Positions 29,873 through 49,303 of a stretch of DNA of 64,000 nt are shown here, piece after piece. Origin of the DNA: an uncultured Candidatus Saccharibacteria bacterium (lineage in GTDB: Bacteria > Patescibacteriota > Saccharimonadia > Saccharimonadales > SZUA-47); contig CAYQPN010000003.1 in NCBI GenBank assembly GCA_964419675.1, positions 11,985 through 75,984 on the forward strand, given 5' to 3'. How positions within the stretch are numbered: the stretch's first letter is position 1; each line of letters starts with the position of its first letter. The position numbers and the translations under genes were made by a program. The notes beneath the pieces are model-generated. The model was not told the origin of the DNA and searched no databases. It saw nothing but the letters and a program-made list of their open reading frames with translations.

Positions 29873-32800
29873 ATGAATATGAAGGTCATGTTAAACAACG
29901 AGCAGCAAAAAGCTGTAGATCATATCTATGGTCCTCTTTTAGTGCTGGCGGGGCCAGGAACAGGCAAGACTCAGCTACTTTCTGCCCGCATTGCCAACAT
30001 TCTGCAGAAAACCGATGCCAATCCGCAGAATATTTTGTGTCTGACATTCACTGAAAATGCAGCTCAAAATATGCGCGAACGGCTTACTAGTATGATTGGC
30101 GACGGAGCATACGACGTACATATCAACACCTATCACGGCTTTGGAAGTGACATTATTCGGCAGTATCCAGAATTTTTTGAAAACATAAACCTAGAAACAG
30201 GCGAAGATTCACGACTAGAGCGACCTATTGATGCTTTAAGGCAAATTCAGATAGTAGAAGAGATTATAGGCAAACTTCCATATTCTAGCCCTCTTATAGG
30301 CGCTAGACACTACATTAAAAACGTATCTAGCACTATTAGTGAGTTAAAACGTGGGTTAGTTACACCATCGTCACTGCGAAAATTAGCTAAGAGTAACCTG
30401 GCCCAAGTACAAAAATTATCTCCTAAGATTGCTGAACACTTGGCTGAGTTGGTCCGCTTTCCTTCAAGTGCAGAAAAATCAATTGAGCTTTTTGGTGGAA
30501 TTTCCGGCATACTAGAAAACCAAGACGGGTTAGCCGAAATTGCACATGAAGAGTTGCAAACTGCTATGGCTGAGGCTAGCGACATGGGCAAATCAACGCC
30601 ACTTACTTCCTGGAAAAACAAGTGGCTCAGCAAAGATAGTGATAATCAATTTAGATTTACGAACGAAGAGCAGCATTTTCGAATGAGTGAGCTTGCTGAT
30701 GTTTACGAAAATTATCAAAAAGAACTGGCGAGTAATCAATTATACGATTTTGACGACATGATTTTGCGAGTTATTGACGCACTCGAAAATCAAGATGAAC
30801 TACGCTTTAACTTGCAGGAAAAATACCAGTTTATTCTGCTTGATGAATTTCAGGACACTAACGCAGCCCAGTTTGAGCTAGTTAAACAACTAGCCGACAA
30901 CCCCGTACATGAAGGTCAACCTAATGTTTTTGCCGTTGGCGATGACGACCAAGCAATTTATGCATTTCAAGGAGCTCGCGTTAGTAATATGCTTTCCTTT
31001 AAAAACGCATACCGTGAAGTTAGGGTAATCAACCTGACAGAAAACTACCGCTCTCATCCAGACATTATTCACACAGCTCACAACATAGCAAAACAAATTG
31101 AATCTCGATTGCATTTGCAGATTGAAGGAATTGAAAAAACGCTGAGCGCTAGTGCAACTAACTTACCTAAGAATTCAATTCTCGAGCGGCATGAGTTTGA
31201 CGGTGAGGCCAATGAATACTCATGGGTGGCCAGCCGAATTAAAAAGTTAATAGTCGGTGGCGTGCATCCAAGTGAAATTGCCATTCTTGCCCCCAAACAT
31301 AAATACCTTGAGTCTGTTGTGCCCTTTTTGGTTAAGAATGACGTGCCAGTTACATACGAAAAACGCGAGAATATTTTGCGTACACCAATGCTCCAAGCCT
31401 TCCGATTAATGAGTAGGCTAATTTTGGCTTGCAACAGAGAAGATAAGTACCAAATGAACGAATTATTCCCACAGGTGTTAAGTCTAGAATTTTTTAGCAT
31501 TCCAGTTAAAGAAATTTGGGCGATAAATTGGAAAAATAGAAGTGCTGATTCTAAAGGGAAAAGTTGGGCAGAGTTAGCTCTGCAAAACCCATTACTTGAA
31601 CCACACATTTTATTTTTCTTAGGTCTAGGCCTAAGAGCAGAAAACGAACCTCTTGAATATATGCTGGATTATCTTACCGGCAGTACTTCACTAAAATTGG
31701 ACAAAGACACTAGATACAGCTCACCGCTAAAAACTTACTATTTTGCTGACAGCACCAAAAACACTCTGCAGTATTTTGAGCTGTTGACCAATCTCAGTGC
31801 TATTCGAGAACATTTACGTGCTCACCAAGCTCAAGAAGAATATTTACTAAACTTGCAAAACTTTATTGATTTTATACAGGCTTATGAAACGGCCGAACAG
31901 CCATTAATCAATACACACCCAATTGCTCAGAGTGCTGAATCAGTACAAGTTATGACAGTTTACAAAGCCAAGGGACTAGAGTTTGAGCACGTATTTCTGC
32001 TGTCTGTTCAGGACGATGTATGGGGCAAAAAAGCCCGGAGTAACACCTCTAAGCTAGACCTGCCAGCAAATCTGCAGCATATTCGCTATCAGGGCAGTAG
32101 TGAAGATGAACTTAGAAGGTTATTATTTGTGGCCATTACTCGTGCAAAGCATGGTTTGTATATTACAAGTCATGCCAGCAAAGATAACGGTAAATCAACA
32201 GAACCCGTAAAGTACTTGCTGGAATATAAAGACGGGGACACAAGGAAAAGCACCGTTTTGCCTGAAACAAACCAGACAGTACACGAAACGCACTTCAGCC
32301 CAACAGAGACAATGCAGGCGATTGATACTATGTGGCATAGTCGACATTTGGAAATAACGACCGATTTGAAGAGCTTGTTGCAAGAACGGCTGACAAAATA
32401 TGTGATGAGCCCAACGCACCTAAATACTTTTATAGATACAGAGCACGGCGGACCAGAGGTATTCTTGCTTCAAACACTATTACGATTTCCGCAAGCGCCA
32501 AGTGAGAATGGAGAATTTGGCACCGCTATACACAACACTCTAGACTGGTATCAGAAACACGCAATAGTTAGCAAATCTCCCACCATTACTTCCGTACTCA
32601 AGACCTACGACGAGCAGCTAAAAAGACGCTACATCCCTAAAGAACATAAGGATGATTATCGTAATCGAGGACACAACTCGCTCAAGAGTTATTTGTCAGC
32701 GACAGATAGTATGTGGCTCAAAACCGCTAAGAGCGAGGTTGATTTCAGAAACGAAGGTGTAATACTCGGAGAGGCACGGTTAACGGGTAAGATTGACCGC

Positions 32801-33112
32801 CTAGAGATTGACGAAAAAAATAAAACTGTTGATATAGTTGATTTCAAAACAGGCAAACCGCTAACAAAATGGGATACTTCAATTAAGGCTCTAAAATACA
32901 AACAACAACTATATTTTTACAAACTGCTAATCGAAGACTCACACACTTGGAGCGGATACAAAGTAAATTCAGCTCGTCTAGAATTCGTAGAGCCCGATTT
33001 AAGAGGAAAAGCCATTCCTCCATTATTCATAGACTTTAATGTTAAAGAGGAAGATGAAATTAAGTTGCTAATTACTAGTACATGGACCAAAATTCAAGAT
33101 TTAGATCTTTAA
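29873..33112 (+). CDS. UvrD/PcrA-type superfamily 1 helicase fused to a C-terminal PD-(D/E)xK (RecB-like) nuclease
   Basis: 1079 aa. GPGTGKT, LLDEFQDTN, TENYRS, VYKAKGLEFEHVFL and FVAITRAK motifs, with a C-terminal GKIDRLEID..VDIVDFKTGK nuclease motif. Confidence 0.85.
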   Translation: MNMKVMLNNEQQKAVDHIYGPLLVLAGPGTGKTQLLSARIANILQKTDANPQNILCLTFTENAAQNMRERLTSMIGDGAYDVHINTYHGFGSDIIRQYPEFFENINLETGEDSRLERPIDALRQIQIVEEIIGKLPYSSPLIGARHYIKNVSSTISELKRGLVTPSSLRKLAKSNLAQVQKLSPKIAEHLAELVRFPSSAEKSIELFGGISGILENQDGLAEIAHEELQTAMAEASDMGKSTPLTSWKNKWLSKDSDNQFRFTNEEQHFRMSELADVYENYQKELASNQLYDFDDMILRVIDALENQDELRFNLQEKYQFILLDEFQDTNAAQFELVKQLADNPVHEGQPNVFAVGDDDQAIYAFQGARVSNMLSFKNAYREVRVINLTENYRSHPDIIHTAHNIAKQIESRLHLQIEGIEKTLSASATNLPKNSILERHEFDGEANEYSWVASRIKKLIVGGVHPSEIAILAPKHKYLESVVPFLVKNDVPVTYEKRENILRTPMLQAFRLMSRLILACNREDKYQMNELFPQVLSLEFFSIPVKEIWAINWKNRSADSKGKSWAELALQNPLLEPHILFFLGLGLRAENEPLEYMLDYLTGSTSLKLDKDTRYSSPLKTYYFADSTKNTLQYFELLTNLSAIREHLRAHQAQEEYLLNLQNFIDFIQAYETAEQPLINTHPIAQSAESVQVMTVYKAKGLEFEHVFLLSVQDDVWGKKARSNTSKLDLPANLQHIRYQGSSEDELRRLLFVAITRAKHGLYITSHASKDNGKSTEPVKYLLEYKDGDTRKSTVLPETNQTVHETHFSPTETMQAIDTMWHSRHLEITTDLKSLLQERLTKYVMSPTHLNTFIDTEHGGPEVFLLQTLLRFPQAPSENGEFGTAIHNTLDWYQKHAIVSKSPTITSVLKTYDEQLKRRYIPKEHKDDYRNRGHNSLKSYLSATDSMWLKTAKSEVDFRNEGVILGEARLTGKIDRLEIDEKNKTVDIVDFKTGKPLTKWDTSIKALKYKQQLYFYKLLIEDSHTWSGYKVNSARLEFVEPDLRGKAIPPLFIDFNVKEEDEIKLLITSTWTKIQDLDL

Positions 33113-35710: not shown

Positions 35711-36355
35711 TTATTTTTTTCTTTTTGAGCTACTTGCTGGTGCCAAGAACATGCTATAAACGTTCATACCCAGAACTGCCCCTAGTAGGGGTGCAAGTAC
35801 GGTTGTTCTATCCCAGGCGTTGTTAGCAAGGGCGACTGCTGGATTTACAAATCCCGGTGCTGCAAGTGCTGCTACTAAAATACCCAGCATTAATGAAGCT
35901 CCAACCGTAAATGCCAGTTGAAAACCTTCAAATTTTTGCATAACCGCGGCGGCGACTCCAAATCCAAACACTGCGGCACCGACCATTTCGGCTACAAATA
36001 CTCTAGAATCAAAAGTACTCATACCAACTGATGCAATATCTGCATTCCTAACATACTGTACAAAGGCAAGCGCCGCTGCGCCACCAAGTAGCTGTGAGGC
36101 TACCATGACAATTGCTTGCGGGCTTGGCACTTTTTTTAGAGTCCAAAGACCCAAAGTTATTGCTGGGTTAACGTGTGCTCCAGACACCCGCCCAATCACT
36201 CCTACTAGTGTAGCCATTGCCACACCCACGGCGACTGCGGTATACCACGGTGCCGTAAAATTAAAATAGCCAGCGCTGGCGATGGCTACCGTTGCAAGCA
36301 CAGCTGTGCCGAAAAATTCGGCTACAATCAGGCCAACTTTATTTTTATCTAACAT
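35711..36355 (-). CDS. MIP-family channel (aquaporin/glycerol facilitator)
   Basis: 214 aa with two NPA boxes (HVNPAITLG, VNPAVALA). Confidence 0.92.
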   Translation of the reverse strand: MLDKNKVGLIVAEFFGTAVLATVAIASAGYFNFTAPWYTAVAVGVAMATLVGVIGRVSGAHVNPAITLGLWTLKKVPSPQAIVMVASQLLGGAAALAFVQYVRNADIASVGMSTFDSRVFVAEMVGAAVFGFGVAAAVMQKFEGFQLAFTVGASLMLGILVAALAAPGFVNPAVALANNAWDRTTVLAPLLGAVLGMNVYSMFLAPASSSKRKK

Positions 36356-36515: not shown

Positions 36516-36944
36516 CTATCTTCGGTTGTGACGGCGTTTTAGGCCTGCGACTTGAAGCCTTACAGATGAACGGTCAACAAGGCTTTGTGCATGCGCTAGA
36601 GAGACTTCGTCTTTGGCCTCTGCCTTCAGCTTCTGGGCTAGCTCGTAAGCTTTTTGGGCCCCTGCTTCGCTAATTTCGTCTGCATGATCTGCCTCATCAA
36701 CTAACACCGTTAACTTGTTATCTGCTACCTCAATAACTCCGCCGTTTATAGCAAAATAATCTATCATGTCGTCTTTATCTGTAGGTTTTCTGCGAATTCC
36801 TACTACGCCGTGCGTAGCTACACTAATTAACGGCATATGCCCTGGCAAAACGCCAATTTGTCCGTCAAGGGTAGGCAAGAGCACTTCGTATACGTCTTCA
36901 CTAAACTTAACCCCTCCCAAGCTGACAAGTTCAAACAGTATCAT
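36516..36944 (-). CDS. atpC: ATP synthase F1 subunit epsilon
   Basis: 142 aa. VPGHMPLI-type motif (LPGHMPLISV) and a C-terminal helical hairpin. Last gene of the operon. Confidence 0.92.
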   Translation of the reverse strand: MILFELVSLGGVKFSEDVYEVLLPTLDGQIGVLPGHMPLISVATHGVVGIRRKPTDKDDMIDYFAINGGVIEVADNKLTVLVDEADHADEISEAGAQKAYELAQKLKAEAKDEVSLAHAQSLVDRSSVRLQVAGLKRRHNRR

Positions 36945-37407
36945 TAGATGCTACCCGGGGTAACACCACGAAAAGTTGCTAAATATTCAGCGGGTGCTCC
37001 AGTGACTATTGAACCTGTGTGATGCGGGTATACTGGACTAGTATTAGGGTTATCAACAGAATGTAGTATCACGCCGCCCATCTGCGTTCTTGTAGCTGTG
37101 TAATCATCACCATTCACTGTTACAATTTTAGGTTCAGTTGTGTCAGCATCTACTAAGCGACCTTCGCCGGGTTGAGGGGTTTCTTCAGACCCTACAATAT
37201 ACCCCCCTAATGCACCGACCGGGACGAAGAAATACTTACCGCTAGCTCTTACCTCACGATCTTTCTCCCTAGCTTCTCGTGCTTTTTCTCTTCTTGATAC
37301 CGCACCATGCCTTAAAACAAATCTTAGAAAGGGCGAAAGTGGTGCTCCACCAAGACTACAATCTAGGGGTTCATTATCATCCAGGAATCCATTATCCGCT
37401 TCAACCA

Positions 37408-37408
<1 letters not shown>
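36944..37408 (-). CDS. Unknown ORF (154 aa) inserted between atpD and atpC
   Basis: The start overlaps the atpD stop (TAATG, 37406-37410) and the stop overlaps the atpC start (TAATG, 36942-36946). No motif recognised. Confidence 0.55.
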
Positions 37409-38980
<1,572 letters not shown>

Positions 38981-38981
<1 letters not shown>

Positions 38982-39175
38982 TATTCTATAGCCTCACCTG
39001 TAGTAGCTTGTGTTGGAGGAAGTTCAGGTACCGTGTCTTTTGCCGGATCAATAACTGCGTGGTACATTGCGTCGCGTGCTGCAAGGTCTACGAGTCCTGC
39101 TGCCATCGATGGTGAGTGTGGTCTAATACGCCTAGGCAGTTCTTCACCTACATATTTTCCATTTATTTCGTTCAT
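38981..39175 (-). CDS. Unknown small ORF (64 aa) immediately downstream of atpG
   Basis: ATGA overlap with the atpG stop (39172-39175). Weak similarity to the 58-aa ORF (PRR near the N-terminus; LPPTQATTGEAIE versus [12 protein letters not shown] at the C-terminus). Confidence 0.5.
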
Positions 39176-40038
39176 TTCATTGCCTCCGCTCCACCCGTTA
39201 TTTCTGCTAATTCTTGTGTAATTGCTGATTGCCGGGCAGTGTTGAATGCTAGGGTTAAATCATCTATTAAGTCTGATGCGTTATCCGTAGCACTTTTCAT
39301 AGCCATCATTCGCATTGAATGTTCACTGGCGATACTCTCAAGCAAAGCCTGCCAAAGCTGAACTTCTAGTAGACGTTCTGTAACATTGTCTAAAACAATC
39401 CCAACAGACGGCTCAAAAGTTACGTTGTCTAAACTACTGACATTTTCTGTTGTCTCGTAGCGTGCTGGCAAAAGCGGTAATTTAGTAGCAACCTGTACTA
39501 AGTTAGATTTGAAATCTGTATATAGCAAAACTACGTCGTCAACTTGTTTGTTTTTATAAAGTTGAGATGCGGTATCTAGTAGTGGACGAACATCATTAGC
39601 CGTTGGCTGATCTCCAAAAGATTCGTAAGCGGCCAATAACTCCACACCTTCAAGCCGACGTGCAAAATTTGCAACTTGTTTACCAATGGCTATGACTTTT
39701 ATATCTAGACCAGCTTTTGTATCTTCAATAACTGATTTTGTAAGTAAACGCAAGATGTTAGCATTATATGCGCCAGCCAAACCACGGTTGGACGTAATGG
39801 CTATATACATACGATTTTTAACTTCACGTTGCACAAAAAGTGGGTGTTCATTAACTTCTGTTATCGCGCTTAAACGAGTGAGCAGGGAATAGGCAGCTTC
39901 GCGGTATGTTCGGCCGGATTTTGCATATTCTTGAGCCCGGCGCATCTTACTAGCCGCAACTAATTCCATAGCTTTAGTAATCTGCTTGGTGTTTTTAACC
40001 GAGCCAATCCGCCGCTTAAGAGTAATTGCATTAGCCAT
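39172..40038 (-). CDS. atpG: ATP synthase F1 subunit gamma
   Basis: 288 aa. N-terminus LKRRIGSVKNTKQITKAMELVAASKMRRAQ and C-terminus ITQELAEITGGAEA. Confidence 0.96.
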   Translation of the reverse strand: MANAITLKRRIGSVKNTKQITKAMELVAASKMRRAQEYAKSGRTYREAAYSLLTRLSAITEVNEHPLFVQREVKNRMYIAITSNRGLAGAYNANILRLLTKSVIEDTKAGLDIKVIAIGKQVANFARRLEGVELLAAYESFGDQPTANDVRPLLDTASQLYKNKQVDDVVLLYTDFKSNLVQVATKLPLLPARYETTENVSSLDNVTFEPSVGIVLDNVTERLLEVQLWQALLESIASEHSMRMMAMKSATDNASDLIDDLTLAFNTARQSAITQELAEITGGAEAMK

Positions 40039-40357
40039 TAATATAACCTTCTCTTTGAAATTCTTGCGATGCTATTAAACAACCTACTCTTATCCCGTTA
40101 CCGGCTGCCCAAAGTGCAGTAGCATAAACTTCATTATAATTCGCATCAAAATCATCATCATCAATTCCAACACAACTTACACCAGTAAATACTTCTACTG
40201 CGACTTCGCCAGCTATTCGATGGGCGTCTTCTTTAATTCTAAGCTGTGCAACGGGTATTTCAATATCAAATATGCGACCGGGAGTAAAATTGGCAGGATC
40301 CCGTAAATAAGAACATGCACTAGGCAAATCCATAGGATACTTGACTGCGGTTCTCAT
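40031..40357 (-). CDS. Unknown ORF (108 aa) inserted between atpA and atpG
   Basis: ATGA overlap with the atpA stop (40354-40357). Its stop lies inside the atpG start (ATGGCTAA, 40031-40038). No motif recognised. Confidence 0.55.
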
Positions 40358-41946
40358 GATTTCTTTCCTTTTTTATCTGTGTTTTTTTCAGCTACTTCGG
40401 AAGAGACATCTTCGGTTTTATAGCTGTCGGCGATTTTGTGGGCTAGTTTGACGATTTTTTCTTTAAGTTTTTCGTCTGGTTCGTCACCTGAGTTTAGCTT
40501 TTCAACTTCTTTAGGGTAGTCATGCTTAAGTTCACGAAGTAAGTTAGCTTCTGCTGTTTTAATTTTGTCTAGGGCAACGTTATCAAAACAACCTTCTGTT
40601 GCTGCAAGCAATACAGCGTACATCTGCCAAATGGAGTAGGGGCTATACTGTGGCTGTTTTAGAAGTTCTGTTAATCTTTGACCGCGCTCAATACGATGGC
40701 GAGTATCAGCGTCTAGGTCTGTTGAGAATTGACTAAAAGCTGCTAATTCGCGGAACTGTGCAAGTTCAATACGCAGTGATTTGGCAACACTTTTTACGGC
40801 CTTAGTCTGCGCTGCACCACCAACACGTGATACAGACAAACCAACTGAAATAGCCGGGCGAATACCCTGATAAAACAAGTTAGTTTCCATAAAAATCTGA
40901 CCATCGGTAATAGAAATTACGTTAGTAGGAATATAGGCGCTAATATCACCAGCTTGCGTTTCAATGATTGGTAGGGCAGTCAAAGATCCGGCACCAAGTT
41001 CATCACTTAATTTAGCTGCTCTCTCAAGTAAACGAGAGTGCAAGTAGAATACATCACCCGGATACGCTTCACGACCCGGTGGGCGTCTTAGTAACAGCGA
41101 CATTTGACGGTAGGCAACAGCGTGCTTTGTAAGGTCATCGTAAACGATTAATGCATGTTGTTTATTATCTCTAAAATACTCACCAATTGTTGCACCAGTA
41201 TACGGCGCAAGGTACTGCATGCTAGCAGGGTCGGCGGCGCTGGTGGCAACTACAATAGTTTGGTCCATTACGCCTTCACGCTTCAAGCGTTCTACTAAAC
41301 GGGCAACCTTGCTAAGCTTTTGACCGATAGCCACGTAAATGTTTATAACACCGGTGTTTTGCTTGTGCTGGTTAATCATAGTATCAACAGCAATGGCAGT
41401 TTTACCCGTCTGGCGGTCACCAATAATAAGCTCACGCTGGCCACGGCCAATTGGCACCATTGCATCCACTGCGGTAATACCTGTCATTAGCGGTTCGTGC
41501 ACACTTTTTCGAGCCAACACACCAGGGGCAATCTGCTCAACTCGTGCAGATCTGGTAGCTTTAATAGCACCTTTACCGTCAATCGGTACACCAAGTGGGC
41601 TAACTACGCGTCCGATAAGCTCTGGACCAACCGGCACTTCAAGAACTTTATTAGTAAGTTTTGCAGTTGCGCCAGCTTTAATTTGAGTATCGTCACCCAA
41701 AACAACCGCACCAATTTCGTCAGTGCTTAAGTTGAAGGCAAATGCTGTAATAGCCTCACCATCATTTGCTTCAATGCTTATCATTTCGTTATAGCCACAA
41801 GACGTCAGACCATAAATCCAGGCTACACCATCACCAATACGAGTAACTACGCCGGTATTCTCAATTTCCGGACGCTTTTTTAGAGCCTCAATGGCTGAGC
41901 GGATATCACCTGCAAGCTCTTTTATTGAAATATCACTGCTGTTCAT
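40354..41946 (-). CDS. atpA: ATP synthase F1 subunit alpha
   Basis: 530 aa. GDRQTGKT Walker A. Has a ~30-aa Lys/Glu-rich C-terminal tail beyond the usual end. Confidence 0.98.
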
Positions 41947-41948
41947 TT

Positions 41949-42353
41949 TTATTCCTTCCCGGACGCCACTTGACGTTTAAATAAGTTCAATTTACTAAAT
42001 ATTGATAAATCCAGCTGTGCGCCAGGGAACTCTAGTTTCACTCCGCCAACTACGTAAGGATCAATGCGCTCGTCAATGGAATAAGATTTTGCATCAGGAT
42101 ATTCAGCGACCAGCAATTCTTTGATGTCTGTTAAATCTTGACCGCTTAATTTATGCGCACTTATAACGTCAACTTCAACAATCCCTTGTTCCAGCCGATA
42201 CTTCATAACGTCACGCATTATTGAGTCTAAATCTGAGGTAAGGTTTTCTTCCAATAAGTAAGCGGCTATTTCGCTAACCAATTTTGACTTATCTGTAATG
42301 TGCAACGTTCGTTGACAGATAAGATCAACTAAACCTTTTCTGGACTTACTCAT
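41949..42353 (-). CDS. atpH: ATP synthase F1 subunit delta (short form)
   Basis: 134 aa. C-terminal [22 protein letters not shown] matches the OSCP/delta C-terminal domain. Shorter than the usual ~180 aa. Confidence 0.8.
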
Positions 42354-42886
42354 TATTTGTTGCGACCTTTCAAAATTTTGTCAATAAGTTCAGCATCCTT
42401 TTTAGGATCCACTTTTTCGCCAACTAGCGCTTCGGTCGCTTCAGAGATTAAACCAACAATATCTTTTTCAAGTCCGCGACGTGCACGGTCTGATTCTTCA
42501 TGAATTCTTGTGTCTGCTTCTGCAAGCATTGACTCTACTTTACGGGCGGTGGTCTTCTCAGACTCTCTCATAACTTCTCGGGCTTCTTTATGACCGGTAG
42601 CTACAATTTTGTCGGCTTCAATTCGAGCTTCTTTCTTTATCTCGGCTATTTCTTTTTCTTGTCTGGCTTTTTCTTCTTCAAGTTTTAAGCCCATTTTGAC
42701 TCCGTCATCAATGACTTGGCGACGTTCTTCAAGCATCTTAACTATAGGTTTTACTGCAAACTTATTAAATAACAGAACAACGATGACAAAAGTAATCAGC
42801 TGTACCACAAAAGCTTCAGCACTTATGCCCAGAGCACCTATGCCCGTTGCCTCTGCCTGCTCACTCGCAAATATGAATGGAACCAT
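42353..42886 (-). CDS. atpF: ATP synthase Fo subunit b
   Basis: One TM segment followed by a long charged helix. Start placed at ATG 42886 (AAGGA Shine-Dalgarno upstream) to avoid overlapping atpE. TAATG overlap with atpH. Confidence 0.85.
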   Translation of the reverse strand: MVPFIFASEQAEATGIGALGISAEAFVVQLITFVIVVLLFNKFAVKPIVKMLEERRQVIDDGVKMGLKLEEEKARQEKEIAEIKKEARIEADKIVATGHKEAREVMRESEKTTARKVESMLAEADTRIHEESDRARRGLEKDIVGLISEATEALVGEKVDPKKDAELIDKILKGRNK

Positions 42887-42908
42887 GTATATATCCTTTG
42901 AATGATCG

Positions 42909-43145
42909 TTATTTAATAATGAATAGAGACGCAAATACTAATAGTGCCATCAACTCTACGATAGCCACAAACACAAGAATCTGACCCAAGAACTTAGCTG
43001 ATTCAGGGTTTCTACCAACTGAATTCATGAAGGCCATACCAATCAAACCAATACCAATTCCGGGCCCTAACATACCAAGGCCAAGCATAAGACCCTTACC
43101 GACGATTTCTACGTTTCCTGTTAATTCTGCTAATATGTTGAACAT
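42909..43145 (-). CDS. atpE: ATP synthase Fo subunit c
   Basis: 78 aa. GPGIGIGLIG glycine motif and the conserved carboxylate in AIVELMAL. Confidence 0.93.
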   Translation of the reverse strand: MFNILAELTGNVEIVGKGLMLGLGMLGPGIGIGLIGMAFMNSVGRNPESAKFLGQILVFVAIVELMALLVFASLFIIK

Positions 43146-43197
43146 TTTCTCCTACTTTCGTTTAATAATTAATTACTTTAATTTTCTAAAGGACCAT

Positions 43198-44019
43198 CTA
43201 CATTTTCATCTCCGTTGCTATCGTCTCAAGCTCATCTGACTCGTCGTGCCCATGATGGACAGCTAGAGACAAATAAGTGACAGATAACATCACAAAAATA
43301 TAGGCTTGAAGAAGTGCTACTCCTAGTTCTAGGAATAGGAAAGGGAAAGATGTAATCGGTGCAGCAGATTTACCCAAATATGAAAAAACCGAAATAATAA
43401 TTTCACCGATAGCAACGTTTAAAAATAGCCTCAGCGCTAGACTAAATACTCTGACAAGTTCGTTAAAAACCTCATAAATACCAATTACGTAAGTTAACGG
43501 GTTCCATAGCTTGCCAGCAAAGTAGTGGCGCATATGCTTAATAGGGCCAGATTCTTGCACAGCGAAATACTGAATCATAATCATTGAAACTAGTGCTGCT
43601 GCGAAAGTTCCATTCAAGTCTGCTGTGAAGGCCCGAAACACCGGGGTACCGTTATGAGTTAAAGCTTCGCCAACTCCTGGCAGTAAACCTAAAATGTTGC
43701 TAAACGCAATAAGAAAGAATATTGAAACAAAGTATGGGCCATATTTAAGGGCTTTTTTACGGTCGCCTAGACTATTTTCAAGTAGATTAACTATAAAATC
43801 TGTCCCAATCTCAACCAACTGAGTAAAGCCGCCCTTCGGTTTTATTGTCATCTTCTTACTAATGTAGATAAAAAGAATAAGCAAAAGGGCAAAACTAACC
43901 CAGGCGTAGACCATAGAATTAGTAATTTCAAAACCCATGAATTCAAACAAACCACCTGGAGCAATATGCACTGTTGGGCCGGCATCTGTGGCCGCAAATC
44001 TGATCAAACTATTTAACAC
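43198..44019 (-). CDS. atpB: ATP synthase Fo subunit a
   Basis: 273 aa polytopic protein. LALRLFLNVAIGE contains the essential Arg. Confidence 0.93.
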   Translation of the reverse strand: MLNSLIRFAATDAGPTVHIAPGGLFEFMGFEITNSMVYAWVSFALLLILFIYISKKMTIKPKGGFTQLVEIGTDFIVNLLENSLGDRKKALKYGPYFVSIFFLIAFSNILGLLPGVGEALTHNGTPVFRAFTADLNGTFAAALVSMIMIQYFAVQESGPIKHMRHYFAGKLWNPLTYVIGIYEVFNELVRVFSLALRLFLNVAIGEIIISVFSYLGKSAAPITSFPFLFLELGVALLQAYIFVMLSVTYLSLAVHHGHDESDELETIATEMKM

Positions 44020-44335
44020 TACTTATCTCCTTTTTATCTGCTTCTTTTTGCTCTTTGCTGACTTGCTTAATGGTGTTCCAGACTATAGAGGCCGCTCCAC
44101 CGGCTGCAATGACTAGTGCTGCAAGTGTATAGGAAGGGGAACTATCAAAATGGTTATCAAGTCCTGCCCCTATGAAGACCGGTATTAATACTGCTCCGGC
44201 TAGTTGCCAACCCATATTCATTGATGAGATCAAGAACTGGCGCTTTGGGTTAAAAACTTCTAGTGCTTTTTGCACCACGTCAGTGTTATCTGTCACCCCA
44301 CCGTCGGGGGAGACTATTTTTGTCGTTTTTCCCAT
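44009..44335 (-). CDS. AtpI/AtpZ-like small membrane protein, first gene of the atp operon
   Basis: 108 aa with two TM segments. Position and size match AtpI/AtpZ. 11-nt overlap with atpB. Confidence 0.65.
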   Translation of the reverse strand: MGKTTKIVSPDGGVTDNTDVVQKALEVFNPKRQFLISSMNMGWQLAGAVLIPVFIGAGLDNHFDSSPSYTLAALVIAAGGAASIVWNTIKQVSKEQKEADKKEISSVK

Positions 44336-44492
44336 TCAATTAATTGTATCAGAAAGTCCTGGGGTGCTTCAAGATGTAAATCCTTGCCTATTTTTCGTAC
44401 ATTATTTTCACGGAGATAAAAGTGTGATTTTTAGCACATATAGTGTTCTGATTTGTTCTACTACACCATATATGTTAGAGTATAAGTGCTTT

Positions 44493-45032
44493 ATGGGCTT
44501 AGAGGAACTCCGAGTAACAAGCCAAGATGACGCGAGTTTTAGACAAAATCTCGCTCTTGTTCAAGGTGGGCTAATATTCGGTAGGATAACAGGACTATTA
44601 ATTAGACCGGCTAATTTTAGTGGCAATAATCTCATTGGTAGAATGAGTTCTGTTGATGTCGAAGCTATTGTTAATCAAAAAGGAGTTGTTGCTAGGGAAG
44701 GTAGACATAGAACAACTTCTGCAGAAATAGTGAAGGCTGTTCTACGAGAGACTCACCGAAGCCTAGGTGTACTTATGTTAAATGAAACCATAGATGACAC
44801 TGATAGAAAATTTACAGAATACGAACGGCTTAACCCCGAGCATGATATTACATTAAAAGTTGCAATAGAAGAGCAAGCTGATATATCGCAAAATACGGAT
44901 CTTATTCGTGGAATAGATGCTTTCGCAGAGGCAACTTCCGATTATTGGGGACGAGTATATGACGACACGCTACTAGAACCAGCAAAGAGATTTGCCATCT
45001 GGTTGATATGCCTAGAACGCAATGAAGTATAG
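44493..45032 (+). CDS. Hypothetical protein (~179 aa)
   Basis: The ORF-track start (44172) runs antisense through the atpI-like gene, so it was trimmed to ATG 44493 (alternative 44472). Confidence 0.4.
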   Translation: MGLEELRVTSQDDASFRQNLALVQGGLIFGRITGLLIRPANFSGNNLIGRMSSVDVEAIVNQKGVVAREGRHRTTSAEIVKAVLRETHRSLGVLMLNETIDDTDRKFTEYERLNPEHDITLKVAIEEQADISQNTDLIRGIDAFAEATSDYWGRVYDDTLLEPAKRFAIWLICLERNEV

Positions 45033-48250: not shown

Positions 48251-48760
48251 ATGAAACCAACACTGCATCTGTTAATGGGTTTGCCCGGGTCAGGCAAAAC
48301 GACTCTAGGAAAAATTATCCAAAAACTTACTAAAGCCGTGAGACTCTCATCTGACGATTACCGTCTATTTATCTTCCCGGAACCAACGTTCAGCCAGAAA
48401 GAACACGACAGCCTTTACGGTATGCTTGATCACAATATAGAACATCTATTGCAGGCTGGGCACGACGTGGTGTACGACGCGAATTTAAACCGACGCAAAC
48501 ACCGAGACGAAAAATATGCACTTGCCAAAAAGTATAATGCCAACGTTGTACTTTGGTACTTAAGTACTTCGAAAACTATGTCTAAAAAACGCAGAATGGA
48601 AGAGCAAGACTATACTCTAGTACCAGAAGGCGAAACACCAGAGCGAATGTTTGACAGAATTGCCGACATTATTGAAGTGCCTGAGTCTGATGAAAAACAT
48701 TTTGATATTGACGGAACAGATATAGAAGTTGCCGAGATAAAAAAACTTCTGAATCTATAG
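48251..48760 (+). CDS. P-loop kinase (AAA_33/polynucleotide-kinase-like)
   Basis: 169 aa. Walker A GLPGSGKTT. Size and fold are typical of small ATP-binding kinases. Confidence 0.65.
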   Translation: MKPTLHLLMGLPGSGKTTLGKIIQKLTKAVRLSSDDYRLFIFPEPTFSQKEHDSLYGMLDHNIEHLLQAGHDVVYDANLNRRKHRDEKYALAKKYNANVVLWYLSTSKTMSKKRRMEEQDYTLVPEGETPERMFDRIADIIEVPESDEKHFDIDGTDIEVAEIKKLLNL

Positions 48761-49303
48761 AGTAAACTGGCTACTAATCGCTACTACTACGTAATACATT
48801 TGACTACTGCCGTTTGATTCTACGTGATCAAAGGGAAGAACGCTAAGACCGATATACTCAGTTTTTGCACTTAACATACATTCTTTATGCCCAGCGCTAC
48901 TTGCTAGCCAGTCATTAATTGCCCCTAAGCCACTTTCATCAACTATTAAATCAAGATTTTCGCAACTGAAGCCTGAGGTAATCCCAACTTTTTCAAGTAG
49001 AGAATCATAAAATTTGCCGTCTGCCATCGTGTGGGAGTATTTACCCTGAACAATCATGTCTGTTGCGCGTTTTCGTGCAATTGTATCAAGTGTTGGGTCA
49101 GATTTAAGCCTTGTGAGCCCGTTTAAGGCTCTAGAATCATTAATTTTGGCCAATACTGGACTTTCTACTACTTTTTCAATAACAGCACCAGCGACCGCCG
49201 GTTGAGCGTTTACAGTCTCAACTGTTGCTTCATATGGTTTGAAATATAAAATTGACGCCGAAAGTAGCGCTAGGCCGAAGATGAATACCAACCAATTCTT
49301 CAT
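48755..49303 (-). CDS. Secreted CAP/SCP (YkwD-like) domain protein
   Basis: 182 aa. Signal anchor followed by INDSRALNGL..YSHT..CENL..W..SAGHKECML pattern. Confidence 0.75.
   Translation of the reverse strand: MKNWLVFIFGLALLSASILYFKPYEATVETVNAQPAVAGAVIEKVVESPVLAKINDSRALNGLTRLKSDPTLDTIARKRATDMIVQGKYSHTMADGKFYDSLLEKVGITSGFSCENLDLIVDESGLGAINDWLASSAGHKECMLSAKTEYIGLSVLPFDHVESNGSSQMYYVVVAISSQFTL

Follow-up and report, generated by a model that had tools for sequence, protein, structure and literature searches.

Why should a small open reading frame (ORF) of no recognizable family sit between the genes for the alpha and gamma subunits of an ATP synthase? Few gene arrays of bacteria are as conserved as the F1Fo operon, whose alpha-gamma-beta-epsilon order is normally uninterrupted. 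In a 64,000-nucleotide (nt) stretch of DNA from an uncultured Candidatus Saccharibacteria bacterium (GenBank assembly GCA_964419675.1, contig CAYQPN010000003.1, positions 11,985 to 75,984), referred to here as the window, a 108-codon ORF, orf108, occupies this place between atpA and atpG. Judged from its coding pattern and its homologues, orf108 is a genuine protein-coding gene of a Saccharibacteria (TM7) genome, and the same sequence evidence indicates that its product is under purifying selection. It is also one instance of a clade-wide class of variable ORFs at F1 junctions in one Saccharimonadales subclade.

The original prediction described a 108-amino-acid (aa) ORF that starts on the atpA stop codon (ATGA) and ends inside the start codon region of atpG. 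The start was placed correctly, with exact coordinates on the minus strand, and this ATGA overlap is, by its arrangement, a junction of the termination-reinitiation type. At the other end, the overlap with atpG is real and measures 8 nt, but the stop codon of orf108 falls just past the atpG start codon and not inside it. There is no non-coding DNA between orf108 and either neighbor. Coding potential was scored as codon-position log-odds trained on the long ORFs of the window. By this measure orf108 reaches 0.217 per codon, compared to 0.181 for atpA and 0.157 for atpG, and ranks among the highest of the 66 window genes. It had been considered beforehand that codon or substitution patterns might be indistinguishable from those of non-coding sequence; they are clearly coding.

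The product of orf108 is soluble and acidic, with a net charge of -7. It has no transmembrane (TM) segment, as first proposed, since the maximum Kyte-Doolittle value over a 19-residue window is 1.35, below the TM threshold of 1.6. The claim that it holds no known motif also stands: no Pfam and no NCBIfam family was found at E<=1, in contrast to the strong matches of the neighboring genes. PHROGs and PADLOC gave no match for orf108, and no Rfam family was found in its region.

Relatives of orf108 are few. Exhaustive scanning of 1.84 billion representatives with HMMER turned up P0002, a 110-aa protein with 45% identity to orf108 (E=5e-15). Its gene lies between atpA and atpG in another Saccharibacteria metagenome-assembled genome (L082). 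A third sequence, P0005, is an 87-aa protein encoded at the same junction in the L019 lineage. It is 29% identical to orf108, aligns to the C-terminal two-thirds and shares ALxxAxNGIxVG with it (hhalign E=0.003). It scores 85 bits against a three-sequence profile that itself includes P0005, and the link is weak on its own. Eight contigs from several groundwater samples, Hainich among the sources, carry P0005; on each its gene starts with ATGA and is flanked by atpA and atpG. Searches with two- and three-sequence profiles found no members beyond P0002 and P0005, a word-indexed search of 5.8 billion clusters returned only orf108 itself, and a scan of metagenome contigs gave no further member. 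The orf108 family consists of three members, all singleton clusters, among about 15 billion proteins.

All three members (window, L082 and L019/L084-88) lie at the alpha/gamma junction and start at the atpA stop codon, with ATGA in the window and in L019/L084 and a start 2 nt after the stop in L082. All three also carry the C-terminal block A-L/Y-x-x-A-x-x-G-I-x-V/L-G. The expectation of a real gene tied to the alpha/gamma position was thus upheld, since two further Saccharibacteria lineages have homologues at this junction. Two candidate relatives were discarded. P0003, a giant protein with 5'-nucleotidase-C repeats, reached E=3.8e-6 with HMMER, and this value was inflated by nine near-identical repeats, one of which scores 24.6 bits. 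P0004, likewise giant, was also a repeat-inflated match. The 5'-nucleotidase C-terminal domain (PF02872) was rejected as well, with no Pfam hit, an hhalign probability of 2.4% and no 5'-nucleotidase among the PDB matches.

Five blocks are conserved between orf108 and P0002: PxACxYLxDPAN, RIFDIExP, AHRxA, DDxxDxNYNEVYA and a C-terminal AAxxGIxxG. The original prediction drew attention to a DDDD run (residues 66-69) and three cysteines (residues 15, 62 and 93). These features are present, but they are conserved only in part: Cys15 is the sole cysteine kept in P0002, and the acidic run reads DDELD in P0002 and is non-acidic in P0005. Between the window and L082, identity is 72% for AtpA, 82% for AtpD, 53-58% for AtpG, 52% for AtpC and 45% for orf108. 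Since synonymous sites are saturated, the ratio of nonsynonymous (dN) to synonymous (dS) change cannot be used for orf108 and P0002, and only dN relative to the neighboring genes is informative. It is 0.575 for orf108, 0.396 for AtpG and 0.414 for AtpC, and therefore orf108 comes close to two bona fide subunits in its degree of conservation.

The same kind of insertion recurs across the clade. An AtpG-seeded scan of GTDB species representatives yielded 80 Saccharibacteria loci with AtpG identities of 83-48%, and the junction survey covers 82 Saccharibacteria loci. Most distances at atpA/atpG (A/G), atpG/atpD (G/D) and atpD/atpC (D/C) fall into two classes, <=15 nt and about 100-1200 nt, and a few lie between them at 40-90 nt. 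About half of the 82 loci, that of the closest relative L002 among them, have an empty alpha/gamma junction (<=15 nt). Gaps of 90 nt or more number 125; same-strand ORFs account for 97% of their sequence and antisense ORFs for 55%. The same-strand ORFs, called fillers here, start at -4, -1 or +2 from the stop codon of one neighbor and end at +1, +4 or +8 relative to the start of the other. The +8 end is common in relatives because the conserved N-terminus of AtpG, M-A-N, encodes TAA in the +2 frame. Inserts occur in 45% (A/G), 74% (G/D) and 64% (D/C) of the genomes of the filled clade, and at each Fo-side junction in 1-3 of about 65 loci. The operon of L082, for example, has extra ORFs at gamma/beta (111 aa), at beta/epsilon (119 aa) and at delta/alpha, the last encoding a PF05635 protein.

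The survey gave 144 non-overlapping fillers of at least 50 aa, with lengths of 50-312 aa. G at the first codon position makes up 40% in fillers, compared to 39% in atp genes and 20% in antisense ORFs. GC content at the three codon positions is 0.60/0.41/0.35 in fillers, 0.60/0.40/0.44 in atp genes and flat in antisense ORFs. In the window, GC content at third positions (GC3) is 0.21 for orf108 and 0.21-0.29 for its four fillers, against a median of 0.34. Fillers are acidic (89-96% are net negative) and poor in lysine (2.9% versus 6.0% in atp genes). A TM-like stretch was found in 3 of the 144, which marks them as a soluble class.

Few fillers resemble anything known. Only 3 of the 144 have a Pfam match, all to PF05635 (23S ribosomal RNA (rRNA) intervening sequence protein), leaving 141 without one. 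Two match the PHROG Avd family, and no credible PADLOC match was found among the 144. Marginal matches to NADH_oxidored (E=0.0011) and SspC (E=0.00025) were treated as noise. A BLAST relative in another locus exists for 38 of 195 fillers, and decoy-controlled iterative profiles place 57 of the 144 in families. These families are junction-specific with the exception of PF05635, which occurs at A/G, D/C and atpH/atpA (H/A). PF05635 is the only filler family seen at changing junctions, which suggests that it is mobile. The genes for these bAvd-like four-helix-bundle proteins lie at L082:312-719 (atpH/atpA), L031:1315-1521 (A/G), and L032:3963-4334 and L076:3617-4006 (both D/C). Neither the flanks of the loci nor the rest of the window held relatives of fillers outside the operon. 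Comparison of orf108 with the other alpha/gamma filler families by hhalign gave nothing significant, apart from the weak match in L019.

One feature is shared by unrelated fillers of the alpha/gamma junction. The pattern G-hydrophobic-x-hydrophobic-G is present in the last 45 residues of 9 of 35 alpha/gamma fillers and in none of the 109 others (shuffle mean 0.9), although the motif was defined post hoc. The nine sequences belong to five groups that are unrelated by BLAST. The motif lies at a variable distance of 11 to 25 aa from the C-terminus, and this argues for constraint at the level of protein rather than RNA. Separately, five alpha/gamma fillers of 128-151 aa (L004:6542-6994, L068:6292-6675, L062:6554-6997, L065:6578-6997 and L029:6578-6997) share, by eye, an 'RPPLP...' block and 'LLxxVxDHGS'. 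BLAST and profiles linked only L004 and L068 among these five, so filler families are probably larger than the clustering shows. At L045:9335-13043, 3.8 kb separate atpD and atpC, and a break in the F1 gene array at beta/epsilon is thus possible. The genes in between, most of them on the opposite strand, encode a Crp-like regulator, a response regulator, a histidine kinase and a membrane protein. As a clue to a mobile element this insert was rejected, since its genes are ordinary.

In a tree built from AtpA, AtpG and AtpD, the basal lineages have tight junctions and one large subclade is filled; a compact operon is therefore ancestral. Within the filled subclade, families are scattered over distant branches and keep their order in tandem arrays (for example F7, F13, F2 and F4 at gamma/beta). 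Unrelated families occupy one junction in sister lineages, namely the orf108 family in the window versus the 'PPLP' family in L004, and likewise in L082 versus L068. The pattern fits a putative ancestral multi-gene array that would have undergone differential loss and rapid divergence. The states of the three junctions are correlated: 9 genomes are empty at all three compared to 2.7 expected, and 18 are filled at all three compared to 11.3, in counts that ignore phylogeny. The genomes with no filler at any of the three belong to at least four separate lineages. Fillers change faster than the subunits beside them. In L016 and L017, related fillers are 46% and 65% identical while AtpG is 90% identical, and in L055 and L056 a filler is 71% identical compared to 89% for AtpG, with a dN/dS of 0.11 in this sole measurable pair. 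Among fillers, orf108 and P0002 are comparatively slow.

The fold of orf108 was modeled with AlphaFold2. With two sequences a poor alpha/beta model was obtained, with a predicted local distance difference test (pLDDT) value of 50. With three sequences the model is a helical hairpin of residues 34-63 and 74-102 (pLDDT 67, predicted template modeling score 0.57; residues 40-100 at pLDDT 73-84), in which the DDDD run lies in the turn and the GIRVG motif in helix 2. The fold is tentative because the two models disagree. Foldseek found nothing in the PDB with either model (best E 0.18 for the first and 4.5 for the second), and a sequence search of the PDB gave no match at E<0.1, the best values of E=0.28-0.39 being noise.

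What might such a protein do? We favor, with somewhat less than even confidence, the reading that orf108 is a dispensable F1-associated accessory protein. It would be co-transcribed with the operon and translated by ribosomes moving from alpha to gamma, as the start and stop overlaps suggest for both co-transcription and translational coupling. The predicted helical-hairpin protein would probably be made beside nascent alpha and gamma. There it could bind alpha, gamma or an alpha3-beta3-gamma assembly intermediate, and it could help assembly or stability or modulate ATP hydrolysis. Under this reading orf108 would be no core subunit but a lineage-restricted accessory of the F1 sector. The absence of orf108 from close relatives implies that it is dispensable. 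The accessory reading draws on the confinement of the family to the alpha/gamma junction, the specificity of fillers for F1 and not Fo, the junction-specific families and the shared motif, the correlated loss, and presumed co-translation next to alpha and gamma. A wider form of it appears rather unlikely: that the subclade has expanded the F1 half of its operon with fast-evolving acidic F1-binding proteins, one set per junction, with orf108 representing alpha/gamma. These would be new peripheral subunits, assembly factors or hydrolysis regulators.

Several observations weigh against an F1-associated role. L002, with 83% AtpG identity, has no orf108 and an alpha/gamma gap of 12 nt. Among co-filled junctions of genomes with AtpG identities of 80-90%, only 2 of 20 pairs hold BLAST-related fillers, and such fast turnover beside F1 subunits that are 70-90% identical is odd for proteins docking on a conserved surface. 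Unrelated families, including PF05635 proteins, occupy the same junctions. The presence of fillers shows no convincing correlation with the length of alpha, gamma, beta or epsilon. AtpA is about 4.5 aa longer in genomes filled at G/D (p=0.008), and its last 25 residues have a median net charge of 0 where junctions are filled, compared to +1 where they are empty (p=0.046), but both effects are small and uncorrected for 13 tests. Three distant relatives, L066, L070 and L077, were left out of the length tests since their computed atpA/atpG distances are about -870 to -888 nt, overlaps that are probably start or stop mis-assignments such as an in-frame extension. The hairpin model has only moderate confidence (pLDDT 67) and is contradicted by the two-sequence model, and binding to F1 is conjectural. 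The low GC3 of orf108 could be a sign of foreign origin. Lastly, the position of a gene inserted in an essential operon is conserved partly by inertia, which can explain the fixed place of orf108 without functional linkage.

A different explanation, doubtful though serious, is that orf108 is a passenger, an accessory 'cloud' gene with a function unrelated to ATP synthase (immunity- or antitoxin-like, anti-defence or host interaction). It would be lodged in a strongly and constitutively expressed operon of a promoter-poor, streamlined genome, and such genes would stay because imprecise deletion would harm their essential neighbors. Small, acidic, soluble orphan proteins have the usual profile of the immunity and antitoxin type. 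The extreme turnover and diversity of fillers (38 of 195 with BLAST relatives, 57 of 144 with profile relatives) point the same way, as do presence and absence that vary between close relatives, unrelated families at one junction in sister lineages (window versus L004), and low GC3. The spread of PF05635 over several junctions shows that at least some fillers move, and species-level unknown genes are usual in Patescibacteria (PMC9132574). However, the orf108 family is known at the alpha/gamma junction only, no filler family but PF05635 moves between junctions, and the Fo-side junctions of the same operon are almost unused. A passenger also fits poorly with loss that is correlated over three junctions, with the lack of flanking repeats or recombination sites, and with the lack of any PADLOC or PHROG match beyond the Avd-like hits. 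Closely tied to the question of origin is an unlikely alternative, which is compatible with any functional reading: a cassette that lineages exchange laterally, with the conserved atpA and atpG flanks as sites of homologous recombination, so that patchiness reflects transfer and not descent. The three lineages with the family are not mutual closest relatives, nearer relatives being empty or carrying other families, and orf108 and P0002 are unusually alike for fillers at their phylogenetic distance; low GC3 agrees with this as well. Yet their 45% identity is below the 53-58% of AtpG in this genome pair, which is what a vertically inherited gene of somewhat faster pace would show, and the ordered tandem arrays agree with differential loss from an ancestral array. 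A tree test would need more than three sequences.

It is distinctly improbable that orf108 serves as a spacer that tunes expression, where translation through the junctions would set the output of alpha, gamma, beta and epsilon (3:1:3:1) by serial termination and reinitiation. The polypeptide would then need only to be harmless, that is, soluble, acidic and quickly degraded. F1 stoichiometry does change at exactly the three junctions that hold fillers, the gaps are filled from stop to start with overlapping codons, and the Shine-Dalgarno-like sequence of the downstream gene lies within the 3' end of the filler. Their fast evolution, lengths from 50 to 312 aa and uniformly acidic, lysine-poor, non-hydrophobic composition would also fit selection for benign products. 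A mere spacer, however, would hardly keep RIFDIExP and NYNEVYA at 45% identity despite saturated synonymous sites, show a dN/dS of 0.11 in the sole measurable pair, or belong to profile families that reach across deep branches. Many relatives attain the same stoichiometry with tight junctions, and the delta/alpha junction (1:3) is unfilled. That orf108 is a chance ORF in an expanded intergenic spacer can be considered refuted already. Such an ORF would have no match in any family library and would form a singleton cluster, as orf108 does, but the strong coding signature, the homologue at the same junction (E=5e-15) and the exact stop-to-start fit all contradict it. Antisense ORFs, moreover, cover only 55% of the gaps and show no conservation.

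The literature yielded no account of additional ORFs among the F1 genes of Saccharibacteria or of other members of the Candidate Phyla Radiation. In one Saccharibacteria clade, dozens of unrelated-looking, selected small-protein genes lie at exactly three F1 junctions. If fillers bind F1, a textbook enzyme would have new regulators or assembly factors, and this in a phylum with poorly understood energy metabolism, and sets of such proteins would amount to an unrecognized layer of ATP synthase biology in the episymbionts of this radiation. If they do not, the clade would offer a clean natural case of streamlined genomes that gain and turn over genes inside essential operons. With its three members, its single fixed position and its clear conserved motifs, the orf108 family is a concrete and testable entry point.

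The atp operon of the window runs on the minus strand in the order atpI-like, atpB, atpE, atpF, atpH, atpA, orf108, atpG, orf64, orf58, atpD, orf154, atpC, with subunit identities assigned from Pfam matches (Table 1). No Pfam or NCBIfam family was found for orf64, orf58 or orf154, and all three are singleton clusters in the 15-billion-protein collection. The original prediction for orf108 did not include these three ORFs, which fill the two remaining F1 junctions in a like manner.

Table 1. Features of the atp operon in the window, with positions counted from its first nucleotide
Feature	Position	Strand	Remarks
atpI-like gene upstream of atpB	44335..44009	-	PF09527 E=1e-08
Fo/stalk half (atpI-like, atpB, atpE, atpF, atpH)	41949..44335	-	tight junctions, no fillers; internal control
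atpH	42353..41949	-	
atpA (F1 alpha, 530 aa)	41946..40354	-	PF00006 3.9e-82, PF00306 4.3e-41
Shine-Dalgarno-like AAGGAAAG	40363..40370	-	within the 3' end of atpA, 8 nt before orf108 ATG; read from sequence
ATGA overlap of atpA stop and orf108 start	40354..40357	-	orf108 ATG 40357..40355, atpA TGA 40356..40354
orf108	40357..40031	-	108 codons, between atpA and atpG
Shine-Dalgarno-like GAGAAGG for atpG	40047..40053	-	in the last codons of orf108, 8 nt upstream of atpG ATG; read from sequence
8-nt overlap ATGGCTAA of atpG start and orf108 stop	40031..40038	-	orf108 TAA 40033..40031, atpG ATG 40038..40036
atpG (F1 gamma, 288 aa)	40038..39172	-	PF00231 2.5e-87
orf64, first of two gamma/beta fillers	39175..38981	-	4-nt overlap with atpG stop; net charge -4
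orf58, second gamma/beta filler	38981..38805	-	1 nt shared with orf64 and 1 nt with atpD; net charge -5
atpD (F1 beta, 465 aa)	38805..37408	-	
orf154, beta/epsilon filler	37408..36944	-	1 nt shared with each neighbor; net charge -6
atpC (F1 epsilon, 142 aa, N- and C-terminal domains)	36944..36516	-	PF02823 5.6e-19, PF00401 3.1e-05

Promoter-like matches within the operon are at chance level (17 versus 16.8 expected), as are terminator-like matches (5 versus 7.5 expected by chance). The best sigma-70-like match of the operon, TTGAAA-16-TAGAAT (10/12), lies at 40236-40263 (-), inside orf108 and some 200 nt before atpG, and given these counts it may have no meaning. The flanks of orf108 show neither direct nor inverted repeats. 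The saccharibacterial AtpA (window 40354-40430 and the equivalents in L002-L082) ends in a variable, Lys-rich tail of about 20-25 residues, in filled and empty junctions alike. A 286-aa ORF divergent from the operon, at 44172-45032 (+), has a fair coding score and matches nothing in Pfam. About 160 nt of it overlap the 5' end of the atpI-like ORF (44009-44335), and the start of one or the other is therefore probably misassigned. Downstream of atpC, the window (35711-36355 and 29873-33112) and the L019 lineage (L084-L087) are syntenic, with a MIP-family channel gene followed by one for a UvrD/PD-(D/E)XK AddA-like helicase-nuclease. Farther away, at 48251-49303, two convergent genes overlap by 6 nt, one for a Zeta-toxin/AAA_33 kinase-like protein (169 aa) and one for a cysteine-rich secretory protein of the CAP/SCP family. 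A ribosomal protein L10 leader (RF00557, 48.3 bits versus a gathering score of 44) lies at 61-284, upstream of rplJ/rplL.

How does orf108 compare with known systems? It was rejected as a canonical F-type subunit (alpha, beta, gamma, delta, epsilon, a, b or c), having no Pfam or NCBIfam match and a junction that is empty in about half of the 82 loci. The small helical F1 regulators (the C-terminal hairpin of epsilon, alphaproteobacterial zeta, mitochondrial IF1 and cyanobacterial AtpTheta) are proteins or segments of about 50-110 aa that are dispensable for catalysis and restricted to lineages. In size, predicted two-helix hairpin, dispensability and restriction to a lineage, orf108 may resemble them. 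However, zeta, IF1 and AtpTheta are encoded outside the operon, and the epsilon of the window keeps its own C-terminal domain alongside orf108. By sequence and fold, membership among these inhibitors (PF00401, zeta, IF1) was rejected for lack of a Pfam hit, a PDB sequence match at E<0.1 or, with the hairpin model, a Foldseek match better than E=4.5.

The PF05635/bAvd-like proteins are, like orf108, small, helical and encoded at the same kind of atp junctions. They differ in that PF05635 occurs at several junctions and, by its family name, in rRNA intervening sequences, whereas the orf108 family keeps to one junction. This family (PHROG Avd, a four-helix bundle of about 115-135 aa) was rejected for orf108, P0002 and P0005, none of which gave a hit, and the orf108 model has two long helices. 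A mobile element or free-standing homing-endonuclease cassette was dismissed, as there is no nuclease or transposase domain, no flanking repeat and no non-coding DNA. A WXG100/ESAT-6-like hairpin was considered for the size, acidity and hairpin model of orf108, and was dropped because there is no WxG in the turn and no PF06013 match.

At the level of whole genomes, the AGNOSTOS study assigned 45,788 of 54,343 Patescibacteria-specific unknown gene clusters to the species level, and species-level unknown genes are the norm in Patescibacteria (PMC9132574). The orf108 family is like these clusters in being restricted to a species or genus and in having no known domain. The difference is that the AGNOSTOS catalogue does not mention 'ATP synthase' or 'ATPase', and the genes described here are concentrated at three junctions of one essential operon, to which their translation would be coupled.

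The orf108 family matches no known family, and the closest kind are accessory genes of the atpI/atpZ type. AtpI and AtpZ are widely conserved membrane proteins encoded at the 5' (Fo) end of the operon. Membership in AtpI/ATPase_gene1/AtpZ was rejected for orf108 (no PF09527 hit; maximum 19-residue hydropathy 1.35). In contrast to them, orf108 encodes a soluble protein, is placed among the F1 genes, shows no similarity to them in sequence and is known from three genomes only. Like atpI/ATPase_gene1 (PF09527) and atpZ, orf108 is a small non-catalytic gene inside the atp operon and presumably co-expressed with it, and it is in this embedding alone that they are alike.

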